DNA from: Cyanobium sp. NIES-981
GTDB lineage: Bacteria > Cyanobacteriota > Cyanobacteriia > PCC-6307 > Cyanobiaceae
Length of the DNA stretch: 64,000 bases
Reading direction: 5' to 3'
Assembly (NCBI GenBank): GCA_943371215.1
Contig: CALRUA020000003.1
Span: forward strand, 160,456 to 224,455
This document shows, piece after piece, positions 6,171-15,056 of the stretch (its first letter is position 1; the number at the start of each line of letters is the position of its first letter). Under the pieces are notes generated by a model. The model ran no database searches. It was given only the letters and a program-made list of their open reading frames with translations, and had not been told where the DNA came from. Position numbers and translations under genes: made by a program.

Positions 6171-7526
6171 TTGATTGAGGACACCATCGCGGCGGTTGCC
6201 ACGGCCGTTGCAGCCGGTGAAGGCAGCGTGGCAATCGTGCGGATATCGGGGCCTGCAGCCGCGGCTATCGGGCAGGGCCTGTTTGTGGCCCCCGGCCATC
6301 AGCCCTGGCACAGCCATCGGGTGCTCTATGGCCACGTGGTGGATCCCGCCACGGCGGAACGGGTGGATGAGGCCCTGCTGCTGTGGATGCAGGCCCCGCG
6401 CAGTTACACCCGTGAGGATGTGGTGGAGCTCCACTGCCACGGCGGCCTGGTGGCGGTGCAGCGGGTGCTGGAGCTGGTGCTGGCGGCCGGAGCCCGTCGG
6501 GCCGAGCCCGGGGAGTTCAGCCAGCGGGCTTTTCTCAACGGCCGGCTCGACCTCACCCGTGCCGAGGCGATCAGCGAGATGATCACCGCCCGCAGCCGCC
6601 GGGCCGCCCAGCTGGCCATGGCCGGCATTGATGGCGGCCTGCAGCAGCGCATCGGCGGCCTGCGGGAGCGGTTGCTGGACCAGTTGGCGGAGCTGGAGGC
6701 CCGGGTGGATTTCGAGGAGGATCTGCCCCCTCTCGATGGCACCGCGGTCGTGGCGGAGCTTGAGGCGGTGCGGGCTGCGCTGGAGCAGCTGGTGGCGGAG
6801 GCCCGCCAGGGGGAGCTGCTGCGCGATGGCCTGCGGGTAGCGATCGTGGGCCGCCCCAACGTGGGCAAATCGAGCCTGCTCAACCTGCTCAGCCGCCGCG
6901 AGCGGGCGATCGTGACCGACCTGCCCGGCACCACCCGTGACCTGCTCGAGAGCGAGCTGGTGCTCGACGGCGTGCCGCTCACCCTGCTCGACACCGCTGG
7001 CATCCGCCCCACCAGCGACCGGGTGGAGCAACTGGGCATCGAGCGCTCGCGCCAGGCCTTGGCGGCGGCCGATGTGGTGCTGCTGCTGTTTGACCTCTCC
7101 CTGGGCTGGACGCCGGACGATGAGCAGCTGCGCCAGCTGGTGCCCGAGGGGGCCGTTCTGCTGGTGGCCGGCAACAAGGCGGATTTGGCTGGAGCTGATC
7201 TCGCCCCCGTGATGCCGCCCCATGTGGCCTTCAGCGCCCTCACTGGCGAGGGCCGCGATCAGCTGGTGGCGGAGCTGTTGCGCCGCTGTGGCGCCGGCCC
7301 CTTGGAGGGGGTGCAGGTGGCCCTCAATGTCCGCCAGCGGGATCTGGCAGCGGCGGCGGCGATGAGCCTGGGGGCCTCGCTTGAGGCGGCCGAACAGCAG
7401 CTGCCCTGGGATTTCTGGACGATTGATCTGCGGGCCGCCGTGCGCTCCCTCGGCGAGATCACGGGTGAGGAGGTGACTGAAGCGGTGCTGGATCGGGTGT
7501 TTGCCCGCTTCTGTATTGGCAAATAG
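6171..7526 (+). CDS. mnmE: tRNA uridine-5-carboxymethylaminomethyl modification GTPase MnmE (TrmE)
   Basis: 'DTIAAVATA' N-terminus, G-domain motifs 'GRPNVGKSSLLN', 'DTAGIR' and 'NKADL', and the diagnostic C-terminal 'CIGK'. TTG start. Confidence 0.93.
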   Translation: MIEDTIAAVATAVAAGEGSVAIVRISGPAAAAIGQGLFVAPGHQPWHSHRVLYGHVVDPATAERVDEALLLWMQAPRSYTREDVVELHCHGGLVAVQRVLELVLAAGARRAEPGEFSQRAFLNGRLDLTRAEAISEMITARSRRAAQLAMAGIDGGLQQRIGGLRERLLDQLAELEARVDFEEDLPPLDGTAVVAELEAVRAALEQLVAEARQGELLRDGLRVAIVGRPNVGKSSLLNLLSRRERAIVTDLPGTTRDLLESELVLDGVPLTLLDTAGIRPTSDRVEQLGIERSRQALAAADVVLLLFDLSLGWTPDDEQLRQLVPEGAVLLVAGNKADLAGADLAPVMPPHVAFSALTGEGRDQLVAELLRRCGAGPLEGVQVALNVRQRDLAAAAAMSLGASLEAAEQQLPWDFWTIDLRAAVRSLGEITGEEVTEAVLDRVFARFCIGK

Positions 7527-8988
7527 CCGAGCGTCCTGGGCCCAGCCTGGCGGCCAGGAATACCAGGGCCATCACGGCGTAGCCCAGGGCCCAGGGCCTG
7601 CCCACCCCCCAGCCCAATTGCAGCACGGTGTCGGAGCTAGTGAACTGCCAGGCGTGGATCACGCCGAACCAGGCCAGCACCGCTGCGATGGCAGCGCAGG
7701 CTGCCGCCGCCAGCAACCGGGCTTCGATCAGGTACACCAGCATGCCGGCCAGCAGCATGGCCGCGATGATCTGGCCCTGCTCCAGGGCAAAGGCTCCGGC
7801 TGCCCACACATCGGCCTGGGCCAGGGGCTGGAGCAGGGCTGGACCAAACGGGTGCGTGGCGGTGCCGCTGCCGCCGGCCCGCAGCCCCGCCTTGAGCATC
7901 AGTGATCCCCAGCCCGCCAGCCCGGGGAGCAGGCCCAGGGCCACGGCTGGAGCATGGCGCAGCGGGGTGGCCTGGAAGGCCTGGGCGGCGATCACCAGGC
8001 CGATGTAGAGCACGATGGCCATGCCCGCTTCGATCGGCACCAGCTGGCCGATCACCCCAAACAGCCCCAGTAGGCAGGCGGCTCCCATCACGAGGCCGTT
8101 GAGCCAGGAGTAGCCGATGCGGGCGCCCATCGCCTTCCAGCCGGGATGGCCGATGTAGAGGGTTGTGGGGAAACAGGATCCCAGAGAGGCAGCGGCCAGG
8201 GTGCCGAGGCCGTTGATCAGCATGGAGCTCCGAACCGGGTAGCGATCGCCTGCGGCCTCGGCGCTCTCCAGGTTCTGGAGGGAGCCGATCACGTTGAACA
8301 GTCCCATGGGCACGATCACCCCCAGCCATGGCAGCAGCTGGCTGCGGGCCTGCCACAGGGCCTCCAGCTGCAGCTGCGGCAGATGCAGGCCAATCAGAGC
8401 AGTGCTGCTCTGCCAGGCCACCGGGTTCAGGCGGATTAGGCCGGTGGCCCAGGCCAGCACGACGCCAAGCACGACGGCCACCAGGCCGGCGGGTACGGGC
8501 CAGCGCACAGGGGTGTAGTAGCCCACCAGAATCACGGCCAGCACGGCTAGCCCAACCACGGGATGCGCGTAGGTGCGCAGCAGGAACCCCAGGGCGATGT
8601 AGCCCAGGGCAATCCCCGCGAGCGTGGAAAGCAGTGCAGCTCGCGGTAACCAGCGCCTCAGGGCGTTGGCCACGAAGGCTCCAGCCGCTTCGATCAGCCC
8701 TGATCCCAGGCACGCGATCAGCCCCGCTTGCCAGGAGAGGGTCACGGCGTCGGCTTCATTCAGGCCCCGGCCCAGGGCGGCCAGTTTCACCGGCAGCATC
8801 ACCAGAAACACGTAGGCGAACAGACTCACCGTGTTGATGCCGTAGGGAAGGGCGGTGCGGTCATCGCGCCCCTCCCGCCTGGCCAGTTGAAAGGCCTGGC
8901 GGGCGTAGGCCAGGTTGCCCACCACCAGGCTGATGCCCGTGGCCGGCAGGATCGTGCCGAACACCAGGCTGTCGGGGTACCCGAGCAC
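7459..8988 (-). CDS. Multi-pass permease, xanthine/uracil/vitamin C (NCS2/AzgA-like) superfamily
   Basis: About 12 hydrophobic segments and an 'ALPYGINT' motif. 8988 is the first canonical start (GTG). The frame stays open upstream and encodes 'KLISQSTNARPQPRWWVAGDLDGVLGLGLDNLIQILLIVGL', which looks like the real N-terminus and first TM helix. A possible CTG start lies at 9123 (see findings). Confidence 0.8.
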   Translation of the reverse strand: MLGYPDSLVFGTILPATGISLVVGNLAYARQAFQLARREGRDDRTALPYGINTVSLFAYVFLVMLPVKLAALGRGLNEADAVTLSWQAGLIACLGSGLIEAAGAFVANALRRWLPRAALLSTLAGIALGYIALGFLLRTYAHPVVGLAVLAVILVGYYTPVRWPVPAGLVAVVLGVVLAWATGLIRLNPVAWQSSTALIGLHLPQLQLEALWQARSQLLPWLGVIVPMGLFNVIGSLQNLESAEAAGDRYPVRSSMLINGLGTLAAASLGSCFPTTLYIGHPGWKAMGARIGYSWLNGLVMGAACLLGLFGVIGQLVPIEAGMAIVLYIGLVIAAQAFQATPLRHAPAVALGLLPGLAGWGSLMLKAGLRAGGSGTATHPFGPALLQPLAQADVWAAGAFALEQGQIIAAMLLAGMLVYLIEARLLAAAACAAIAAVLAWFGVIHAWQFTSSDTVLQLGWGVGRPWALGYAVMALVFLAARLGPGRSAICQYRSGQTPDPAPLQSPPHP

Positions 8989-9119: not shown

Positions 9120-9608
9120 TCAGCCGCCGTAGTTCAGGGATGAATGGTGAAGCACGATCCGCACACTGCCATCCGTTTCCCTCACAAATGTCCAGGTCTT
9201 GTCAACGCTGGTGACGCTGCCTGTGGCATCGGTGAAGATCACATTCCCCATCGTGGTGGCCGAGGAACCATCGAGCTGAATCACCTGATTCACAATTCTG
9301 CAGGAGCGCCAGGGTTTGATGGCAAAACCCTTGTCTTGTGGGAAGTTCGGATTGTTGCCAACAAAGTAAGCAAGCGCGCCCTCGCGGGTGGTGCGAAAGG
9401 TCTGCTCCCCTGAGGCCAAGGTGGGCTTGAAAGCCACAGGTCCGTATTGGTAGCCGTAGGCTTGATCGATCACCTGGGCAGCGGTTGCCTTGGCCTTGGC
9501 GATGCCTCCCTTGGAGTAATCGGAGCTGATTTGCAGCAGGGCTTTGCACCAGCCTTCCTGGGCCTGGAGCACCTGGTTGTCGTATCGGGCCGGCCACGGC
9601 AGCTCCAT
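9120..9608 (-). CDS. NTF2-like fold protein (DUF4440 / CaMKII-association-domain-like)
   Basis: 162 aa with no signal peptide. The C-terminal 'WTFVRETDGSVRIVLHHSSL' resembles the W-x-I-x-HHSS ending of the bacterial CaMKII-AD/DUF4440 family. The assignment is from memory of that family. GC is visibly lower than in neighbouring genes. Confidence 0.6.
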   Translation of the reverse strand: MELPWPARYDNQVLQAQEGWCKALLQISSDYSKGGIAKAKATAAQVIDQAYGYQYGPVAFKPTLASGEQTFRTTREGALAYFVGNNPNFPQDKGFAIKPWRSCRIVNQVIQLDGSSATTMGNVIFTDATGSVTSVDKTWTFVRETDGSVRIVLHHSSLNYGG

Positions 9609-9645: not shown

Positions 9646-10503
9646 ATGACTATCGCTTGCCTGCCCGTCACTCCCCAGCTGGAGCAACACCTGCGCGCCT
9701 GGCTGGCGGAAGATCTGGGCCGCGGCGACCTCACGGCGGCCGCCCTGGCCGGCTGCACCGGCAGGGCCCATTGGTTGGCGAAAGCTGATGGGGTGTTCTG
9801 CGGCGGTGTGCTGGTGGAGCCGCTGTTCCACCTGCTGGATCCAGGCGTGCAGTTACGCCTGCTCGTGGCCGATGGCGAGCCGGTGGTAGCCGGCCAGCGG
9901 CTGCTGGAGCTGGAGGGCCCGGCTGCGGCTCTGGTGGCCGGCGAGCGCACCGCCCTGAACCTGGCCATGCGGCTCTCCGGCATCGCTACCGCCACGGCGG
10001 CACTGGTGGCGGCTCTGGCGGGCACGGGTGTGGACTTGGCCGACACCCGTAAAACCAGCCCCGGCTTGCGGGTGCTGGAGAAGTACGCGGTGCGCTGCGG
10101 TGGTGGCCTCAACCATCGGCTAGGCCTGGATGACGCCGCCATGCTCAAGGAGAACCACCTGGCCTGGGCGGGGGGGGTTGCTGCCGCGATTGCGGCGGTG
10201 CGGGCCCAGGCGCCCTGGCCAGCGACGGTGATCGTGGAGGCGGAGACGGCGGAGGAGGCGGTGGCGGCGGTGCTCGCCGGCGCCGATGGGGTGCTGCTCG
10301 ACGAATTCCTCCCCGGTGAGTTACTCGCATTGGTGCCCCAGTTGCGGGCGTTGGCCCAGGGGCGGCAGTTGGTGCTGGAGGCCTCTGGGGTTCAACCCGA
10401 CCAGCTGCGGGCTTACGCGGCCACGGGCATTGATCTGATCTCCACCAGTGCGCCGATCACCCGCAGCGTTTGGCTTGATCTGAGCATGCGCTTTGCGGCT
10501 TGA
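9646..10503 (+). CDS. nadC: Nicotinate-nucleotide pyrophosphorylase (quinolinate phosphoribosyltransferase)
   Basis: 'AEDLGRGDLT', 'GERTALNLAMRLSGIAT' and 'DTRKTSPGLRVLEKYAVRCGGGLNHRLGL'. Start set at ATG 9646. Confidence 0.9.
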   Translation: MTIACLPVTPQLEQHLRAWLAEDLGRGDLTAAALAGCTGRAHWLAKADGVFCGGVLVEPLFHLLDPGVQLRLLVADGEPVVAGQRLLELEGPAAALVAGERTALNLAMRLSGIATATAALVAALAGTGVDLADTRKTSPGLRVLEKYAVRCGGGLNHRLGLDDAAMLKENHLAWAGGVAAAIAAVRAQAPWPATVIVEAETAEEAVAAVLAGADGVLLDEFLPGELLALVPQLRALAQGRQLVLEASGVQPDQLRAYAATGIDLISTSAPITRSVWLDLSMRFAA

Positions 10504-10537
10504 GTCGGCGCGTTGGCAGTGGGGCCTGCGGTCTGCA

Positions 10538-10551
10538 TACTGCGATCAGTA
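10538..10551. promoter_or_regulatory. 14-bp palindrome TACTG-CGAT-CAGTA in the nadC/binding-protein spacer (candidate operator)
   Basis: Perfect 5+4+5 dyad read directly from the sequence. It sits 15-28 nt upstream of the GTG at 10566, in the AT-richest part of the 62-nt spacer. Confidence 0.2.
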
Positions 10552-10565
10552 GACATCGAGGCTGA

Positions 10566-11516
10566 GTGGCTGCACAACTCCTCACTACCGGATCGAGGCC
10601 CTGGCGACGGGTTGCGGCAGGCCTCGGAGCCTTGGGCATCCTGACGCTCATGCCGGCGGCGGCTCAGGCTGAGGGCACTGTGCAGCGGGCGGCGCGCACC
10701 GGCCAGCTCGTCCTGAGCGGCTTGGCCGATGTGCCCCCCCTCGTGGTGACAACTCCCCAGGGGCAACCCAGTGGCTACGGCCTCTTGGTGGCCGATCGCA
10801 TCGCGGCCGAACTCTCCCGTGCCGTGGGTAAGCCGGTGACGGTGCGCTTTGCGCCGGTGGGTAATCCCGCCAGCCTGGTGGGCAGCATTACGAAGGGCCA
10901 GGCGGATCTCGCCTGCGGCTTTCCGTTCAGCTGGGAGCTGGACATGCAGGTGGACTTTTCATTGCCAATCGGGGTTTCCGGGTTGAGGTTGCTGGCGCCG
11001 GCCGGTCGTTTCGATGGCAGCCCTGTAGCCCTGGCCGGCCGGAAGATCGGGGTGGTGCGCCAATCGTTGGGTGAGACCGAGCTGAAAGGCATGCAGCCCA
11101 ACGCTACGGCGGTTGCCTTTGACAACCTTCAGGCGGCGGTGGCGGCCTTAAAGGCTGGAAACGTTGACGGCGTGGTCGGTGACACCATCGTGCTGGCCGG
11201 TTTGGTGCGTCAACAGGGTTTGAAAGGCTTGGCCTTGACCCCCGATTTCCCCTACGAGGCCTACGCGGTGAGCTGCGTGCTGGCCGAGAATGATTCCAGC
11301 TTCCGCAATCTGGTCAACCTGGCGATCGCCCGGCTGTTGCAGGGCTACCTCGACGGCCAGTCGGACACGGTCGCCGCGGTGAACCGTTGGCTGGGGCCGG
11401 GCAGCGCCGTGGGTCTGCCCGAAGCCACGATCCGCACCAGCTTCGAGGCGGTGTTGTTGGGGGTTGAGACCATCCGTCCGATTTCGGAAGACCAGGCCGC
11501 TCCCAACGCTCGCTAA
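10566..11516 (+). CDS. Orphan extracellular solute-binding-like protein, family 3 (amino-acid-type SBP fold)
   Basis: Leader 'GSRPWRRVAAGLGALGILTLMPAAAQA' (contains RR). SBP_bac_3-like blocks: 'GYGLLVADRIAAEL', 'DLACGFPFSWELDMQVDFSLP', 'LAGRKIGVVRQSLGE' and 'LKAGNVDGVVGDTIVL'. No permease or ATPase gene is adjacent. Confidence 0.8.
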   Translation: MAAQLLTTGSRPWRRVAAGLGALGILTLMPAAAQAEGTVQRAARTGQLVLSGLADVPPLVVTTPQGQPSGYGLLVADRIAAELSRAVGKPVTVRFAPVGNPASLVGSITKGQADLACGFPFSWELDMQVDFSLPIGVSGLRLLAPAGRFDGSPVALAGRKIGVVRQSLGETELKGMQPNATAVAFDNLQAAVAALKAGNVDGVVGDTIVLAGLVRQQGLKGLALTPDFPYEAYAVSCVLAENDSSFRNLVNLAIARLLQGYLDGQSDTVAAVNRWLGPGSAVGLPEATIRTSFEAVLLGVETIRPISEDQAAPNAR

Positions 11517-11549
11517 CCGGTTCGCTGATTCCCCTCCTCCGTTGCTGAC

Positions 11550-11948
11550 ATGGCGTTGTTCAACCGCTCCCATCTGTTTGGCCTGTTGCTGCTGGTCTCC
11601 CTGCCGCTCGATGGGGCGGCTGCCTTGGCCCTGGCCAGCGTCCAGGCCCCCCCCGCGAGCCCAAGCATCGAGGAACGGCTGAGCCGGATTGCGGCGGCCG
11701 TGCAGGAGCGTGAGGGCTCGCTGGGAGTGGCTGAGGGCCCAGCAGGTGTTGCCGACGATGCCCTCTCCTACGTGTTCGTGAACGGCTCCGGGCTGGGTTG
11801 GGGCAACGGTGGTTTCAACAATGGCGGCTTCTACAACGGCGGATTTAATAACGGCGGTTTCACGAACGGCGGCTTCTACAACGGGGGCTTCCGCAACGGC
11901 GGTTTCCGCAATGGCGGCTTCTTCAACGGCGGCCGCTACTGGCGCTGA
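11550..11948 (+). CDS. Secreted Gly/Asn/Phe-rich pentapeptide-repeat protein, putative radical SAM substrate (RiPP-like precursor)
   Basis: 132 aa. It has a Sec-type leader ('MALFNRSHLFGLLLLVSLPLDGAAALALASVQA'), an acidic helical spacer, then 'WGNGGFNNGGFYNGGFNNGGFTNGGFYNGGFRNGGFRNGGFFNGGRYWR'. No Cys. The stop shares TGATG with the radical SAM start. Confidence 0.85.
   Translation: MALFNRSHLFGLLLLVSLPLDGAAALALASVQAPPASPSIEERLSRIAAAVQEREGSLGVAEGPAGVADDALSYVFVNGSGLGWGNGGFNNGGFYNGGFNNGGFTNGGFYNGGFRNGGFRNGGFFNGGRYWR
11802..11933 (+). repeat. 15-nt-period coding repeat (aaY ggN ggN ttY NNN) x ~9, encoding x-N-G-G-F pentads
   Basis: Read directly: aacggtggtttcaac / aatggcggcttctac / aacggcggatttaat / aacggcggtttcacg / aacggcggcttctac / aacgggggcttccgc / aacggcggtttccgc / aatggcggcttcttc / aacggcggc. 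The units differ mostly at synonymous positions. Confidence 0.9.
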
Positions 11949-13141
11949 TGCCTGCTCCGCTAGCTGACGTGACTGCGGAGGTCCGCCAGGTCTATGGGCC
12001 TGTGAGGCTGTTGGTGGTGCAACCCACCCCCTACTGCAACCTCGATTGCGACTACTGCTACTTGCCTGATCGGGGCGATCGCGGTCGGCTGTCGTTTGAG
12101 GTTCTGGAGGTTGCACTCGAGCGGGTGCTGGATAGCCCCTACTTCGGGGGGGAGTTCACTCTGCTTTGGCATGCGGGCGAACCGCTCATGGTGCCGATCG
12201 CCTTTTACGACGAAGCCACGGAGCGGATTCATCGGCTGTTGGAACGACGCGGCCTGCCCCCCGGCACGATCGTGCAGTCGCTTCAGACCAACGCCACGGT
12301 GATCAACGCCGCTTGGTGCGACTGCTTCACGCGCAACGGCATCCACGTGGGCGTGAGCATGGATGGCCCTGCCTTTCTGCACGATGCCCACCGAGTCACC
12401 CGCACCGGCATGCCCACCCATGCCGCCGTTATGCGTGGCATCAGCTGGTTGGTGCGGCGGGGACTTCCCTTTCAGGTGATCTGCGTGCTCACCGCCGATG
12501 CCCTTGACCACGCCGATGCCATCGCCGACTTCTTCCTCCAGCACGGCATCACCGAGGTGGGCTTCAACATGGAGGAGACGGAGGGGTCGAATAGCCGCTC
12601 CAGCCTCGATGCCGGCGGCGCCGGGCAGATAGCCCTGGAGCAGCGCTACCGGGCGTTCATGGCACGGCTTTGGCAGCGCAGTCGCGAGCTGTCCGGACGC
12701 CTCCGCATTCGCGAGTTCGACGGCATTGCCAGCCTGGCCTGTAGTCAGGCGCGCATGGTTCAAACCGACATGAACACGCCCTTCGTGATCGTCAATGTCG
12801 ATGCCCGTGGCCAGGTGTCCACCTTCGATCCCGAATTGCTGTCGGTCAAGACGGCTAAGTACGGCGACTTCTCCTTTGGTAACGTGCTTGTCGACAGCCT
12901 CGAAGCTTTGGCCGGCACCGACAAGTTTCGTCGGGTGGCCGCGGAGATGCGGGCGGGGGTTGAGCTGTGCCGCGCTAGCTGTGAGCACTTCGGGCTTTGT
13001 GGTGGTGGCACCGGCAGCAACAAGTATTGGGAGCACGGCCGCTTCGACTGCACCCAAACTCAGCACTGCCGCTACCGCATCCAGCTGGTGGCCGACGTGG
13101 TGCTGGAGGGTCTGGAGCATGAGCTGGGCCTTAGCGCCTAA
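11948..13141 (+). CDS. Radical SAM enzyme with Cys-rich SPASM/twitch-like C-terminal domain (peptide-modifying maturase type)
   Basis: 'VVQPTPYCNLDCDYCYL' (CX3CX2C at aa 30-37), 'LLWHAGEPL' (GGE-like SAM motif), 'FGNVL', and C-terminal Cys at aa 265, 341, 345, 351, 368 and 374, including 'CRASCEHFGLCGGG'. No signal peptide or TM helix. Confidence 0.9.
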   Translation: MPAPLADVTAEVRQVYGPVRLLVVQPTPYCNLDCDYCYLPDRGDRGRLSFEVLEVALERVLDSPYFGGEFTLLWHAGEPLMVPIAFYDEATERIHRLLERRGLPPGTIVQSLQTNATVINAAWCDCFTRNGIHVGVSMDGPAFLHDAHRVTRTGMPTHAAVMRGISWLVRRGLPFQVICVLTADALDHADAIADFFLQHGITEVGFNMEETEGSNSRSSLDAGGAGQIALEQRYRAFMARLWQRSRELSGRLRIREFDGIASLACSQARMVQTDMNTPFVIVNVDARGQVSTFDPELLSVKTAKYGDFSFGNVLVDSLEALAGTDKFRRVAAEMRAGVELCRASCEHFGLCGGGTGSNKYWEHGRFDCTQTQHCRYRIQLVADVVLEGLEHELGLSA

Positions 13142-13211
13142 GCGGCTTTGGGAGAGGGGGCTAACGGCCTCCGCGGGATGATCAAAGAGAAACCTGCTAC
13201 GGCATGGCCCC

Positions 13212-15056
13212 ATGCTCCGCATCGCCCAAACCCTGAACGGCCAGCTGCGTGCGGCTATGGAACGGGCCTTCCCCGAGGCGGCGCACCAGGCTCACGCGGG
13301 TGGGCAGCCCCTCGATCCCCAGCTGGCGCCGGCCTCGAAGCCGGAATTCGGGGATTTCCAGGCCAATGGCGCTCTGCCCTTGGCCAAGCCCCTGGGGCAG
13401 CCGCCCCGAGCCATCGCCACGGCGATCGTGGAGCAGCTTGCGGCCGATCCGGCCTTTGATCAGCTCTGCGAAGCGCCCCAGATCGCCGGGCCCGGCTTCA
13501 TCAACCTCACCCTGCGGCCCGAGCGGCTGGCGGCTGAGCTTCAGGCCCGGCTGGGGGATCCGCGGCTGGGGGTGCCCAGCATGGTGGAGGAGGCCGCGGC
13601 GGCGGGGGAGTCCCTGGCCCCGGTGATCGTGGACTTCTCCAGCCCCAACATCGCCAAGGAGATGCACGTGGGACACCTGCGCTCCACGATCATTGGCGAT
13701 TCCCTGGCCCGGGTGCTGGAGTTTCGCGGCCACCCGGTGCTGCGGCTCAACCATGTGGGCGATTGGGGCACCCAGTTCGGGATGCTGATCACCCACCTCA
13801 AGCAGGTGGCTCCCGAGGCCCTCACCACCGCCGATGCGGTGGATCTAGGCGATCTGGTGGCCTTCTACCGCCAGGCCAAGGCCCGCTTCGACGACGACGA
13901 GGCCTTCCAGACCACTTCCCGGGAGGAAGTGGTGAAGTTGCAGAGCGGCGATCCCATCAGCCGCAAGGCCTGGCAGCTGCTCTGTGATCAGAGCCGCCGT
14001 GAATTCCAGAAGATCTACGACCGCCTCGACATCCGCCTCAGCGAGCGCGGCGAATCGTTTTACAACCCCTACCTGGAGGGAGTGGTAGCCGATCTGGATA
14101 CCTCCGGGTTGCTGGTCACCGACGATGGCGCCCGTTGCGTGTTCCTCGAGGGGGTCAGTGGCAAGGACGGAAAACCTTTGCCGGTGATCGTGCAGAAGAG
14201 GGATGGCGGTTTCAACTACGCCACCACCGATCTGGCCGCCATTCGCTACCGCTTCGGCTCAGCTCCCGCTGGGGACGGCGCCCGGCGGGTGATCTATGTG
14301 ACCGATGCGGGCCAGGCCAATCACTTCGCCGGCGTGTTCCAGGTGGCCCGCAGGGCCGGTTGGATCCCCGCCGATGGCCGCCTCGAGCACGTGCCCTTTG
14401 GCCTGGTGCAGGGCGAGGACGGCAAGAAGCTGAAAACCCGGGCTGGCGACACGGTGCGGCTGCGGGATCTGCTGGATGAGGCGGTGGAGCGGGCCGAGGC
14501 CGACCTGCAACGGCGCTTGGCGGAGGAGGAGCGGACGGAAGACGAGGCCTTCATCCAGCACGTGGCCACCACCGTGGGTCTGGCCGCTGTGAAGTACGCC
14601 GATCTCAGCCAGAACCGGATCACCAATTACCAGTTCAGTTTTGATCGGATGCTGGCGTTGCAGGGGAATACCGCTCCCTACTTGCTCTATGCCGTGGTGC
14701 GCATCGCTGGCATTGCCCGTAAGGGTGGAAACCTGGAGGCTGGTGGCGCTGAGGCAGCTGGATCCGGAGGCCAAGCCGCCCTCACCTTCACGGAACCGCA
14801 GGAATGGGCCCTGGTACGGGAACTGCTCAAGCTCGATGGCGTGATCGCCGAGGTGGAGGAGGAGTTACTGCCCAATCGTCTCTGCACCTACCTGTTCGAG
14901 CTGAGCCAGGTGTTCAACCGCTTCTACGACCAAGTGCCGGTGCTCAAGGCCGAAGAGTCTGCCCGCTCCTCCCGCCTGGCCCTCTGCCGCCTCACTGCCG
15001 ACACCCTCAGGCTGGGGCTGGGCCTGCTCGGCATCCCCACCCTGGAGCGGATGTGA
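13212..15056 (+). CDS. argS: Arginine--tRNA ligase
   Basis: Class I HIGH motif 'EMHVGHLRS' and a DALR anticodon-binding C-terminus ending 'IPTLERM'. Confidence 0.95.

Follow-up and report, generated by a model that had tools for sequence, protein, structure and literature searches.

The 64,000-nucleotide stretch of Cyanobium sp. NIES-981 DNA analysed here (the window; contig CALRUA020000003.1, positions 160,456 to 224,455) carries three adjoining genes, grrP, grrA and grrM, between nadC and argS. They encode an orphan substrate-binding-protein homologue, a glycine-rich repeat precursor and a radical S-adenosylmethionine (rSAM) maturase. We conclude that GrrA probably acquires cyclophanes in the cytoplasm, is then exported through the general secretory (Sec) pathway and is cleaved by signal peptidase, leaving a protein of about 103–105 residues in the periplasm. 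A preliminary description of this DNA had likewise proposed a secreted product of about 100 residues, which is the simplest outcome when neither a leader peptidase nor an exporter is encoded nearby.

Family membership was computed for all three products. GrrA scored 71.8 bits against TIGR04260 (GrrA/OscA1 cyclophane-containing rSAM-modified RiPP, a ribosomally synthesised and post-translationally modified peptide; cut-off 31), with residues 1–126 matching profile positions 1–116 of 118. GrrM scored 553.8 bits against TIGR04261 (GrrM/OscB cyclophane-forming radical SAM/SPASM maturase; cut-off 310), the model starting at residue 24. GrrP scored 240.8 bits against TIGR04262 (extracellular substrate binding-like orphan protein GrrP; cut-off 190); it also matches PF00497 (SBP_bac_3) and, distantly, amino-acid-binding proteins. 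GrrA has a Gly-rich C-terminal half with aromatic-x-Asn repeats and an adjoining GrrM-type rSAM gene, and no ABC permease or ATPase genes lie beside the three genes, whose neighbours in the window are nadC and argS, in keeping with the orphan GrrP of GRRM systems. Together the genes constitute the GRRM system (GrrP-GrrA-GrrM) as already curated, orthologous and with nothing essential different. The preliminary description had seen here a new, non-canonical RiPP logic; this is not upheld in that form, because the system is already curated, maturases without a recognition domain are usual in this anSME-like (anaerobic sulfatase-maturating enzyme-like) clade and RiPPs with Sec signals are known. 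Its gene inventory described the sequence accurately but overlooked the adjoining grrP (10566–11516).

A scan of one genome per species gave 481 loci with a GrrM relative. The locus comparisons below use the best 80 of these, all picocyanobacterial (Synechococcus, Cyanobium, Vulcanococcus); the closest, with 97% identity, is that of Synechococcus sp. HJ21-Hayes, to which the host, a freshwater picocyanobacterium, is close. The order nadC-grrP-grrA-grrM-argS is conserved in nearly all of the 80 loci with sufficient contig, the exceptions being local insertions and one permuted locus (L079) in which grrP is placed 3' of grrM with the three genes still together. In nearly all of these loci GrrP adjoins grrA/grrM, and grrA and grrM co-occur in the 70-odd loci where both are readable. 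The window flanks are housekeeping genes: nadC (quinolinate phosphoribosyltransferase), argS (arginyl-tRNA synthetase) and an aminotransferase. Neither these flanks nor the conserved neighbours in the 80 loci include a peptidase, an ABC exporter or a gene for a RiPP recognition element (RRE), in agreement with what had been noted for the window.

The GrrA translation starts MALFNRSHLFGLLLLVSLPLDGAAALALASVQAPPASPSIEERLSRIAAAVQEREG and ends with eight GGFxN repeats followed by RYWR. Its N-terminus has the n-, h- and c-region layout of a Sec and signal peptidase I substrate, without Pro at +1 of the predicted cleavage sites. Residues 9–20 (LFGLLLLVSLPL), which average 2.57 on the Kyte-Doolittle scale, form the sole strongly hydrophobic stretch in the protein. 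The c-region, DGAAALA, combines a helix breaker with small residues at −3 and −1 (A25/A27, or A27/A29), and cleavage is predicted after A25-L26-A27 or, alternatively, after A27-L28-A29. The earlier proposal of a basic n-region, a hydrophobic core and a VQA cleavage site is thus retained for the core only in full: the n-region is weakly basic, and VQA (residues 31–33) was rejected as the site, as it has Pro34 at +1, is not conserved and sits where the protein varies most. Pro at +1 is incompatible with cleavage by signal peptidase I.

We found 214 homologues of GrrA. An alignment of 21 sequences shows no variation at M1, S7, L9, G11 and P19, and conservation of 90% or more at F10, L13, L18, A25, L26 and A27. 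The mean column entropy over 76 sequences is 0.92 bits for residues 1–27, and conservation collapses directly after A27, to 2.48 bits for residues 28–38, where 78% of codon pairs differ non-synonymously. This sharp boundary fits cleavage at either of the two predicted sites. The same start codon and N-terminus are present in 76 of 78 related loci, and the synonymous share of codon differences is 41% in codons 2–27 versus 13% in the linkers, which indicates that the conservation reflects selection on the peptide. Together with the layout, these data uphold the view that the rSAM substrate carries a signal peptide; they also rule out a true start codon downstream of the hydrophobic segment, which had been named as a possible objection.

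The signal is conserved beyond what export would need. The signal of GrrA has a mean pairwise identity of 0.67, that of GrrP one of 0.42 and the mature part of GrrP one of 0.61, and the GrrA signal is more conserved than the GrrP signal in 96% of locus pairs; since short Ala/Leu-rich segments inflate such identities, the contrast between GrrA and GrrP carries more weight than the absolute values. The comparison suggests a second function of the signal, most simply recognition by GrrM. We found no mention of a GrrA/OscA signal peptide in the literature covered, from which the original reports on triceptides (Nguyen 2020 in Nat Chem, Sugiyama 2022, Ruel 2025 in JACS) were absent, and searches on GrrM/GrrA and on the TIGR accessions gave nothing relevant.

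Several observations weigh against cleavage and export by the Sec route as outlined above. The n-region contains one Arg (R6) and His8, for a net charge of +1. Most picocyanobacterial homologues outside the clade of the window have R-S-R at this position, which resembles a split twin-arginine motif. Residues L9–A29 are 21 mostly apolar residues with a Kyte-Doolittle value KD19 of 1.99, so that they could serve as a membrane anchor that is not cleaved. The authors of the bufferin work argue that Sec should handle macrocyclised peptides poorly (PMC11626156). For GrrP as the partner of the exported protein, conserved adjacency and a shared exported location are the whole basis.

The R-S-R variants bear on export by twin-arginine translocation (Tat). 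In that case R6-S7-(R/H)8 would be a degenerate twin-arginine motif derived from Tat-type ancestors, and the signal would be kept bound, by GrrM or another factor, for as long as modification goes on, in the manner of Tat proofreading chaperones; we regard this as unlikely for the GrrA of the window. Such Tat-type relatives do exist. A profile of GrrA homologues run against 1.84 billion representatives gave 592 matches, and the small Gly-rich aromatic-repeat proteins among them nearly all keep an N-terminal export signal, a short helix and the repeats, the helix block reading (I/V)(E/D)xRLxRI or RADxLA. At least 101 clusters, outside the cyanobacteria, have a canonical S/T-R-R-x-F-L-K Tat motif (e.g. 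MSELNRRQYLKKLL and MSDLGRRQFLKSLL); R6 and R7 are invariant in an alignment of 13 Tat-type relatives, and the signals end in a standard cleavable A-x-A. Cyanobacterial and Tat-type precursors align with a probability of 99.9% in hhalign, with R6-S7-H8 of the window on R6-R7-Q8, although the repeats dominate this score and the N-terminal register is suggestive rather than proof. Split R-N-R Tat signals exist, for instance in E. coli penicillin amidase, and R-S-R occurs in 34 of 116 picocyanobacterial clusters; the unusually good conservation of the GrrA signal can also be counted for Tat. However, the clade of the window has R-S-H with a single Arg (55 of the 116 clusters), and the signal itself, N-R-S-H-L-F-G, does not conform to a Tat motif. 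The maximum KD11 of the h-region is 2.40 ± 0.19 in picocyanobacteria versus 1.97 ± 0.17 in the Tat-type relatives, K/R is present in 2% versus 56% of the c-regions, and 99% of the picocyanobacterial signals have D/E at residues 19–24, making the c-region acidic rather than basic. Hydrophobicity, c-region charge and Arg content are established differences between Sec and Tat signals; on these grounds we rejected Tat as the primary reading and take the signal of the window GrrA to be of the Sec type.

In all four Tat-type loci examined the precursor gene is followed directly by that of an rSAM enzyme of 379–397 residues; for two of these enzymes the score against TIGR04261 was determined, at 436.9 and 465.8 bits with the model starting at residue 14–16, and neither has an RRE. 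Since Tat is built for cargo that matures in the cytoplasm, modification before export is the natural reading for these relatives. Export thus appears to characterise the family as a whole, a strong argument against the GrrA N-terminus being a mere leader. Literature searches gave no natural RiPP precursor with a Tat signal among the papers listed. The four cassettes (L081, 6001–8063; L082, 5234–8329; L083, 5181–8484; L084, 5218–8395) consist of four genes without a GrrP homologue, and one of the contigs is annotated Planctomycetia. They include a divergent gene for 195–200 residues, of which three copies are full-length with signal-peptide-like N-termini and that of L081 is truncated to 83 residues, and a gene for a protein of 182–288 residues without Pfam or NCBIfam match, overlapping or closely 3' of the rSAM gene. 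In a third precursor subfamily (P0259, P0273, P0275, P0288, P0303, P0337, P0373 and P0377) the N-terminus reads R(S/T)xxxLxxLLPAGxLGxSxALA, and the repeats are Trp-rich, GGWGNGGWHN, with FWHNW at the end; P0259, the single member tested, passes the TIGR04260 cut-off.

Retention of the N-terminal segment is also doubtful. Here the segment would stay uncleaved and anchor GrrA in the plasma or thylakoid membrane, with the repeats on the far side. The apolar length of L9–A29 and the helices predicted by AlphaFold at residues 8–16 and 20–31 would suit an anchor, and strong conservation is more typical of a retained than of a discarded segment. Yet the break P19-x-(D/E)21-(G/P)22 followed by A-L-A is that of a classical cleaved c-region, the conservation stops abruptly at A27, and the homologous segment of the distant relatives is a cleavable Tat signal with an A-x-A end.

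GrrM has the architecture of a cytoplasmic enzyme without an RRE, with an anSME-like fold and a Cys-rich domain at the C-terminus. The ATG of grrM overlaps the TGA stop of grrA (TGATG), and the rSAM open reading frame (ORF) cannot start further upstream than position 11948. With only 29 residues before the first cluster cysteine and no upstream start, an RRE does not fit in the protein. Residue 18 of GrrM aligns with residue 3 of anSMEcpe, an anaerobic sulfatase-maturating enzyme (anSME), and the AlphaFold model (predicted local distance difference test, pLDDT, 71; predicted template modelling score, pTM, 0.74) superposes over about 400 columns both on anSMEcpe (E 1.5e-16) and on the rSAM domain of the cyclophane synthase ChlB (9gm3; Foldseek E 1.4e-14). 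The 120 best homologues are 338–428 residues long, most of them 379–410. The short N-terminus and the end-to-end alignment with anSME and ChlB agree with the earlier observation that CX3CX2C starts at residue 30 without a preceding RRE, and the absence of a hydrophobic segment (maximum KD19 1.22) with the statement that the enzyme lacks a signal peptide or transmembrane helix. No PqqD-like RRE was detected in GrrM or in the neighbourhood of the 80 loci, nor a small extra RRE-like gene conserved across them (the scope being the neighbourhood, not the rest of the genome), so that the system is not a canonical RRE-dependent one. This is no peculiarity of the locus, as the RRE-less architecture is the norm for the anSME-like clade. 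GrrM itself scores 141.9 bits against the anaerobic sulfatase maturase family TIGR03942, below the cut-off of 349.45. Besides CX3CX2C seven cysteines are invariant in the homologues (124, 126, 265, 341, 345, 351 and 374); C124 and C126 lie in the rSAM core, and the C-terminal pattern C-x3-C-x5-C...C is unlike the classical SPASM spacing, so the number and ligation of the auxiliary clusters may differ from anSME.

A maturase that resides in the cytoplasm and lacks an RRE means that modification has to precede export, as had been proposed. How GrrM would recognise its substrate is suggested by the conservation of GrrA beyond the signal. The whole of residues 34–83 had been put forward as the recognition element; a conserved amphipathic helix within it, residues 39–54, is plausible in this role, being conserved family-wide (E41, R43, L44, R46, I47, A50 and V51) and predicted helical, while the linkers on either side are variable (residues 55–69, 2.55 bits). 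In the pre-repeat segment that follows, G83 is invariant and W84 at least 90% conserved. The AlphaFold model of GrrA is of low confidence (pLDDT 50); besides the two N-terminal helices it predicts one at residues 40–57, and disordered repeats.

Recognition could go further than this: the N-terminus might serve GrrM only as a leader or hydrophobic recognition helix, the product staying in the cytoplasm or leaving through an unlinked transporter. Its conservation far beyond export needs would be accounted for, and the RRE-less ChlB binds the leader of its substrate directly (PDB 9gm3), so that direct leader binding has a structural precedent. We nevertheless think this quite improbable, because the n/h/c layout with A-x-A fits an export signal, an unmistakable twin-arginine motif occupies the equivalent position in at least 101 homologous clusters and the conserved neighbour GrrP is itself exported.

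The eight repeats of GrrA contain, in order, the triads F-N-N, F-Y-N, F-N-N, F-T-N, F-Y-N, F-R-N, F-R-N and F-F-N, which are candidate sites for cyclophanes between Phe and the C-beta of Asn. The prediction is based on the family member OscB, which forms three-residue cyclophanes from Phe-C4 or Trp-C7 to the C-beta of an Asn or Asp two residues downstream, and cross-links aromatic-x-Asn motifs (review, PMC11002830). That GrrA is instead an ordinary secreted glycine-rich structural protein with grrM beside it by chance is very improbable: direct evidence for modification of this GrrA is indeed lacking, but the genes overlap at TGATG and occur together in the 70-odd loci and in the four distant Tat-type loci, and the repeats match the motif cross-linked by OscB (PMC11002830).

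The preferred pathway, with cytoplasmic modification and Sec export, can then be outlined as follows. GrrA would be synthesised as a pre-protein of 132 residues. GrrM, translationally coupled to grrA, would join the Phe ring to the C-beta of Asn in each of the eight F-x-N motifs, forming three-residue cyclophanes in the cytoplasm, probably after recognising helix 39–54 and perhaps also the signal peptide. The disordered, still linear chain would leave via the general Sec pathway, and signal peptidase I would cut after A27 or A29, not at VQA. The resulting cyclophane protein would reside in the periplasm, or possibly in the thylakoid lumen. How a multiply cross-linked chain crosses the membrane had been posed as a puzzle. 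It becomes less of one here: passage through SecY seems feasible, given that the predicted cross-links are i to i+2 rings and the repeats are predicted to be disordered, and the Tat-type relatives soften it as well; the contrary view of the bufferin authors remains. Bonardi et al. (2011) are reported to have shown that SecYEG tolerates rigid adducts of about 2 nm.

GrrP is a likely partner of the exported GrrA. Its A-x-A site directly precedes the mature start EGVxxRVAR conserved in homologues, and the signal sequence itself is variable. In the clade of the window this signal contains W-R-R-V-A-A-G and in related loci G-R-R-L-A-A-G, and other clades have a single R; with such a clade-limited twin-arginine-like pair the export route of GrrP might vary between clades.

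A more general reading of the GrrA-type family is possible, and we offer it tentatively. Such precursors could make up a large family in which the secretion signal would double as the leader; the RRE-less maturase would bind the signal, the helix or both, hold the pre-protein until it is cross-linked and then release it to Sec or Tat, much like a Tat proofreading chaperone or AtsB with the signal peptide of AtsA. The signal would have switched between Tat (probably in Planctomycetia and others) and Sec (in cyanobacteria), and in both lineages the cyclophane protein would act together with an exported, co-encoded partner, namely GrrP in cyanobacteria and the unrelated 195–200-residue secreted protein in the Tat-type loci.

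Features of the grrP-grrA-grrM cassette and its surroundings in the window, with the evidence for each; residue numbers refer to the encoded proteins.
Feature	Position	Strand	Evidence
Sigma-70-like promoter candidate upstream of grrP	10513..10541	+	TTGGCA-17-CATACT, 9/12 matches
grrP (316 aa, GTG start), orphan homologue of periplasmic substrate-binding proteins	10566..11516	+	TIGR04262, PF00497
GrrP signal peptide (predicted), residues 1–35, ending ...MPAAAQA before EG	10566..10670	+	Hydrophobic stretch and A-x-A site
grrA, Gly-rich repeat precursor, 132 aa plus stop	11550..11948	+	TIGR04260 GrrA/OscA1
GrrA Sec-type signal peptide (predicted), residues 1–27 (n 1–8, h 9–20, c 21–27 DGAAALA)	11550..11630	+	Conservation, hydrophobicity
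GrrA variable Pro/Ala/Ser linker, residues 28–38, includes VQA-PP	11631..11663	+	Entropy 2.48 bits
GrrA conserved amphipathic helix, residues 39–54 (SIEERLSRIAAAVQER), candidate GrrM recognition element	11664..11711	+	Entropy 1.03 bits
GrrA conserved pre-repeat segment, residues 70–85 (DALSYVFVNGSGLGWG)	11757..11804	+	Entropy 1.42 bits
GrrA eight GGFxN repeats, residues 86–128	11805..11933	+	Entropy 0.40 bits; predicted disordered
grrM, cytoplasmic radical SAM/SPASM maturase, 397 aa	11948..13141	+	TIGR04261
GrrM CX3CX2C radical-SAM cluster motif, C30/C34/C37	12035..12058	+	Single occurrence; invariant in homologue alignment

The promoter-like site upstream of grrP and the absence of terminator-like sites within 10300–13400 are weakly indicative of, and consistent with, a single grrP-grrA-grrM transcript. 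Between mnmE and nadC the window contains a multi-pass membrane protein of 509 residues (7459–8988, minus strand) and an ORF of 162 residues (9120–9608, minus strand). Neither has a Pfam match at E ≤ 0.001; they are present only in some of the related loci and lie outside the conserved cassette.

Nearly all GrrA homologues end in an aromatic C-terminal residue (...FRNHW, ...RNYW, ...RNF); in the clade of the window the C-terminus (11934–11945) is RYWR, in which the Trp does not vary. The maturases of darobactin and dynobactin are relatives of GrrM (NF041298 DynA, E 2e-35), and the products of these systems mimic the C-terminal beta-signal of outer-membrane proteins. As a speculative lead, the aromatic C-terminus and this kinship might point to a target in the cell envelope.

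To our knowledge, the natural products and the function of the Grr branch of the triceptides are uncharacterised, and we know of Grr-type enzymes being studied only by co-expression with tagged precursors. The GRRM system as such is known; the consequences of export, the link to GrrP and the Tat-type relatives are not discussed in the literature covered. If the proposed pathway is correct, the mature product is to be expected as a protein of about 105 residues in the periplasm or thylakoid lumen rather than among the small peptides of culture extracts, the signal would be hidden by the N-terminal tags of heterologous experiments, and the orphan GrrP becomes an obvious candidate partner. The use of general secretion by RiPPs would also be extended from the MNIO class (oxidative enzymes that depend on multinuclear non-heme iron) to radical SAM enzymes. 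The position of the cassette between nadC and argS in nearly all related loci with sufficient contig points to a physiological, cell-envelope role over an antibiotic one.

Among known systems, the closest in chemistry are the triceptides and their three-residue cyclophane-forming enzymes (OscB, XncB, MscB), as the repeats of the window carry the aromatic-x-Asn motif of OscB. ChlB/ChlA (PDB 9gm3, 9gmc) shares the GrrM fold in an RRE-less cyclophane synthase, whose crystals contained the substrate's leader region. In contrast to GrrM, ChlB carries a fused second domain, as a title cited in PMC12912966 indicates, and acts on Tyr-containing motifs; on an export signal in ChlA no information was found.

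The export logic is shared with bufferins and related MNIO-modified RiPPs (oxazolins, chryseobasins and RiPPs of the lipoprotein pathway), whose precursors of 60–120 residues have Sec or lipoprotein signals and are modified by a cytoplasmic enzyme; the product is a small protein of the periplasm, made without a dedicated exporter or leader peptidase (PMC11626156, PMC13056109). The likeness ends there, as these systems use an MNIO (DUF692) with a DUF2063 partner to form thiooxazoles or thiohemiaminals on Cys, whereas GrrA has no Cys and its enzyme is a radical SAM protein. The signal peptide of bufferins is dispensable for modification; the strong conservation of the GrrA signal hints otherwise for GrrM.

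Among solved structures, and among families that do not form cyclophanes, anSME/AtsB come closest to GrrM; like it, they are RRE-less rSAM/SPASM enzymes starting a few residues before CX3CX2C. The order of events is parallel as well, since a cytoplasmic enzyme modifies the signal-peptide-bearing precursor of a periplasmic sulfatase before export; AtsB-dependent modification of Klebsiella AtsA is reported to need the AtsA signal peptide (Marquordt et al. 2003, J Biol Chem). The reaction differs in that Cys or Ser is converted to formylglycine in a large enzyme substrate with a (C/S)xPxR motif. GrrA contains neither Cys nor SxPxR. By analogy only, and not by homology, GrrM may also be compared with the Tat proofreading chaperones TorD, DmsD and NapD, maturation factors that hold an export signal until the cargo is finished. 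Such chaperones bind the signal peptides of cofactor-containing Tat substrates, and a similar holding of the signal by the maturase would account for the strong conservation of GrrA signals of the Sec-like as well as the Tat-like kind.

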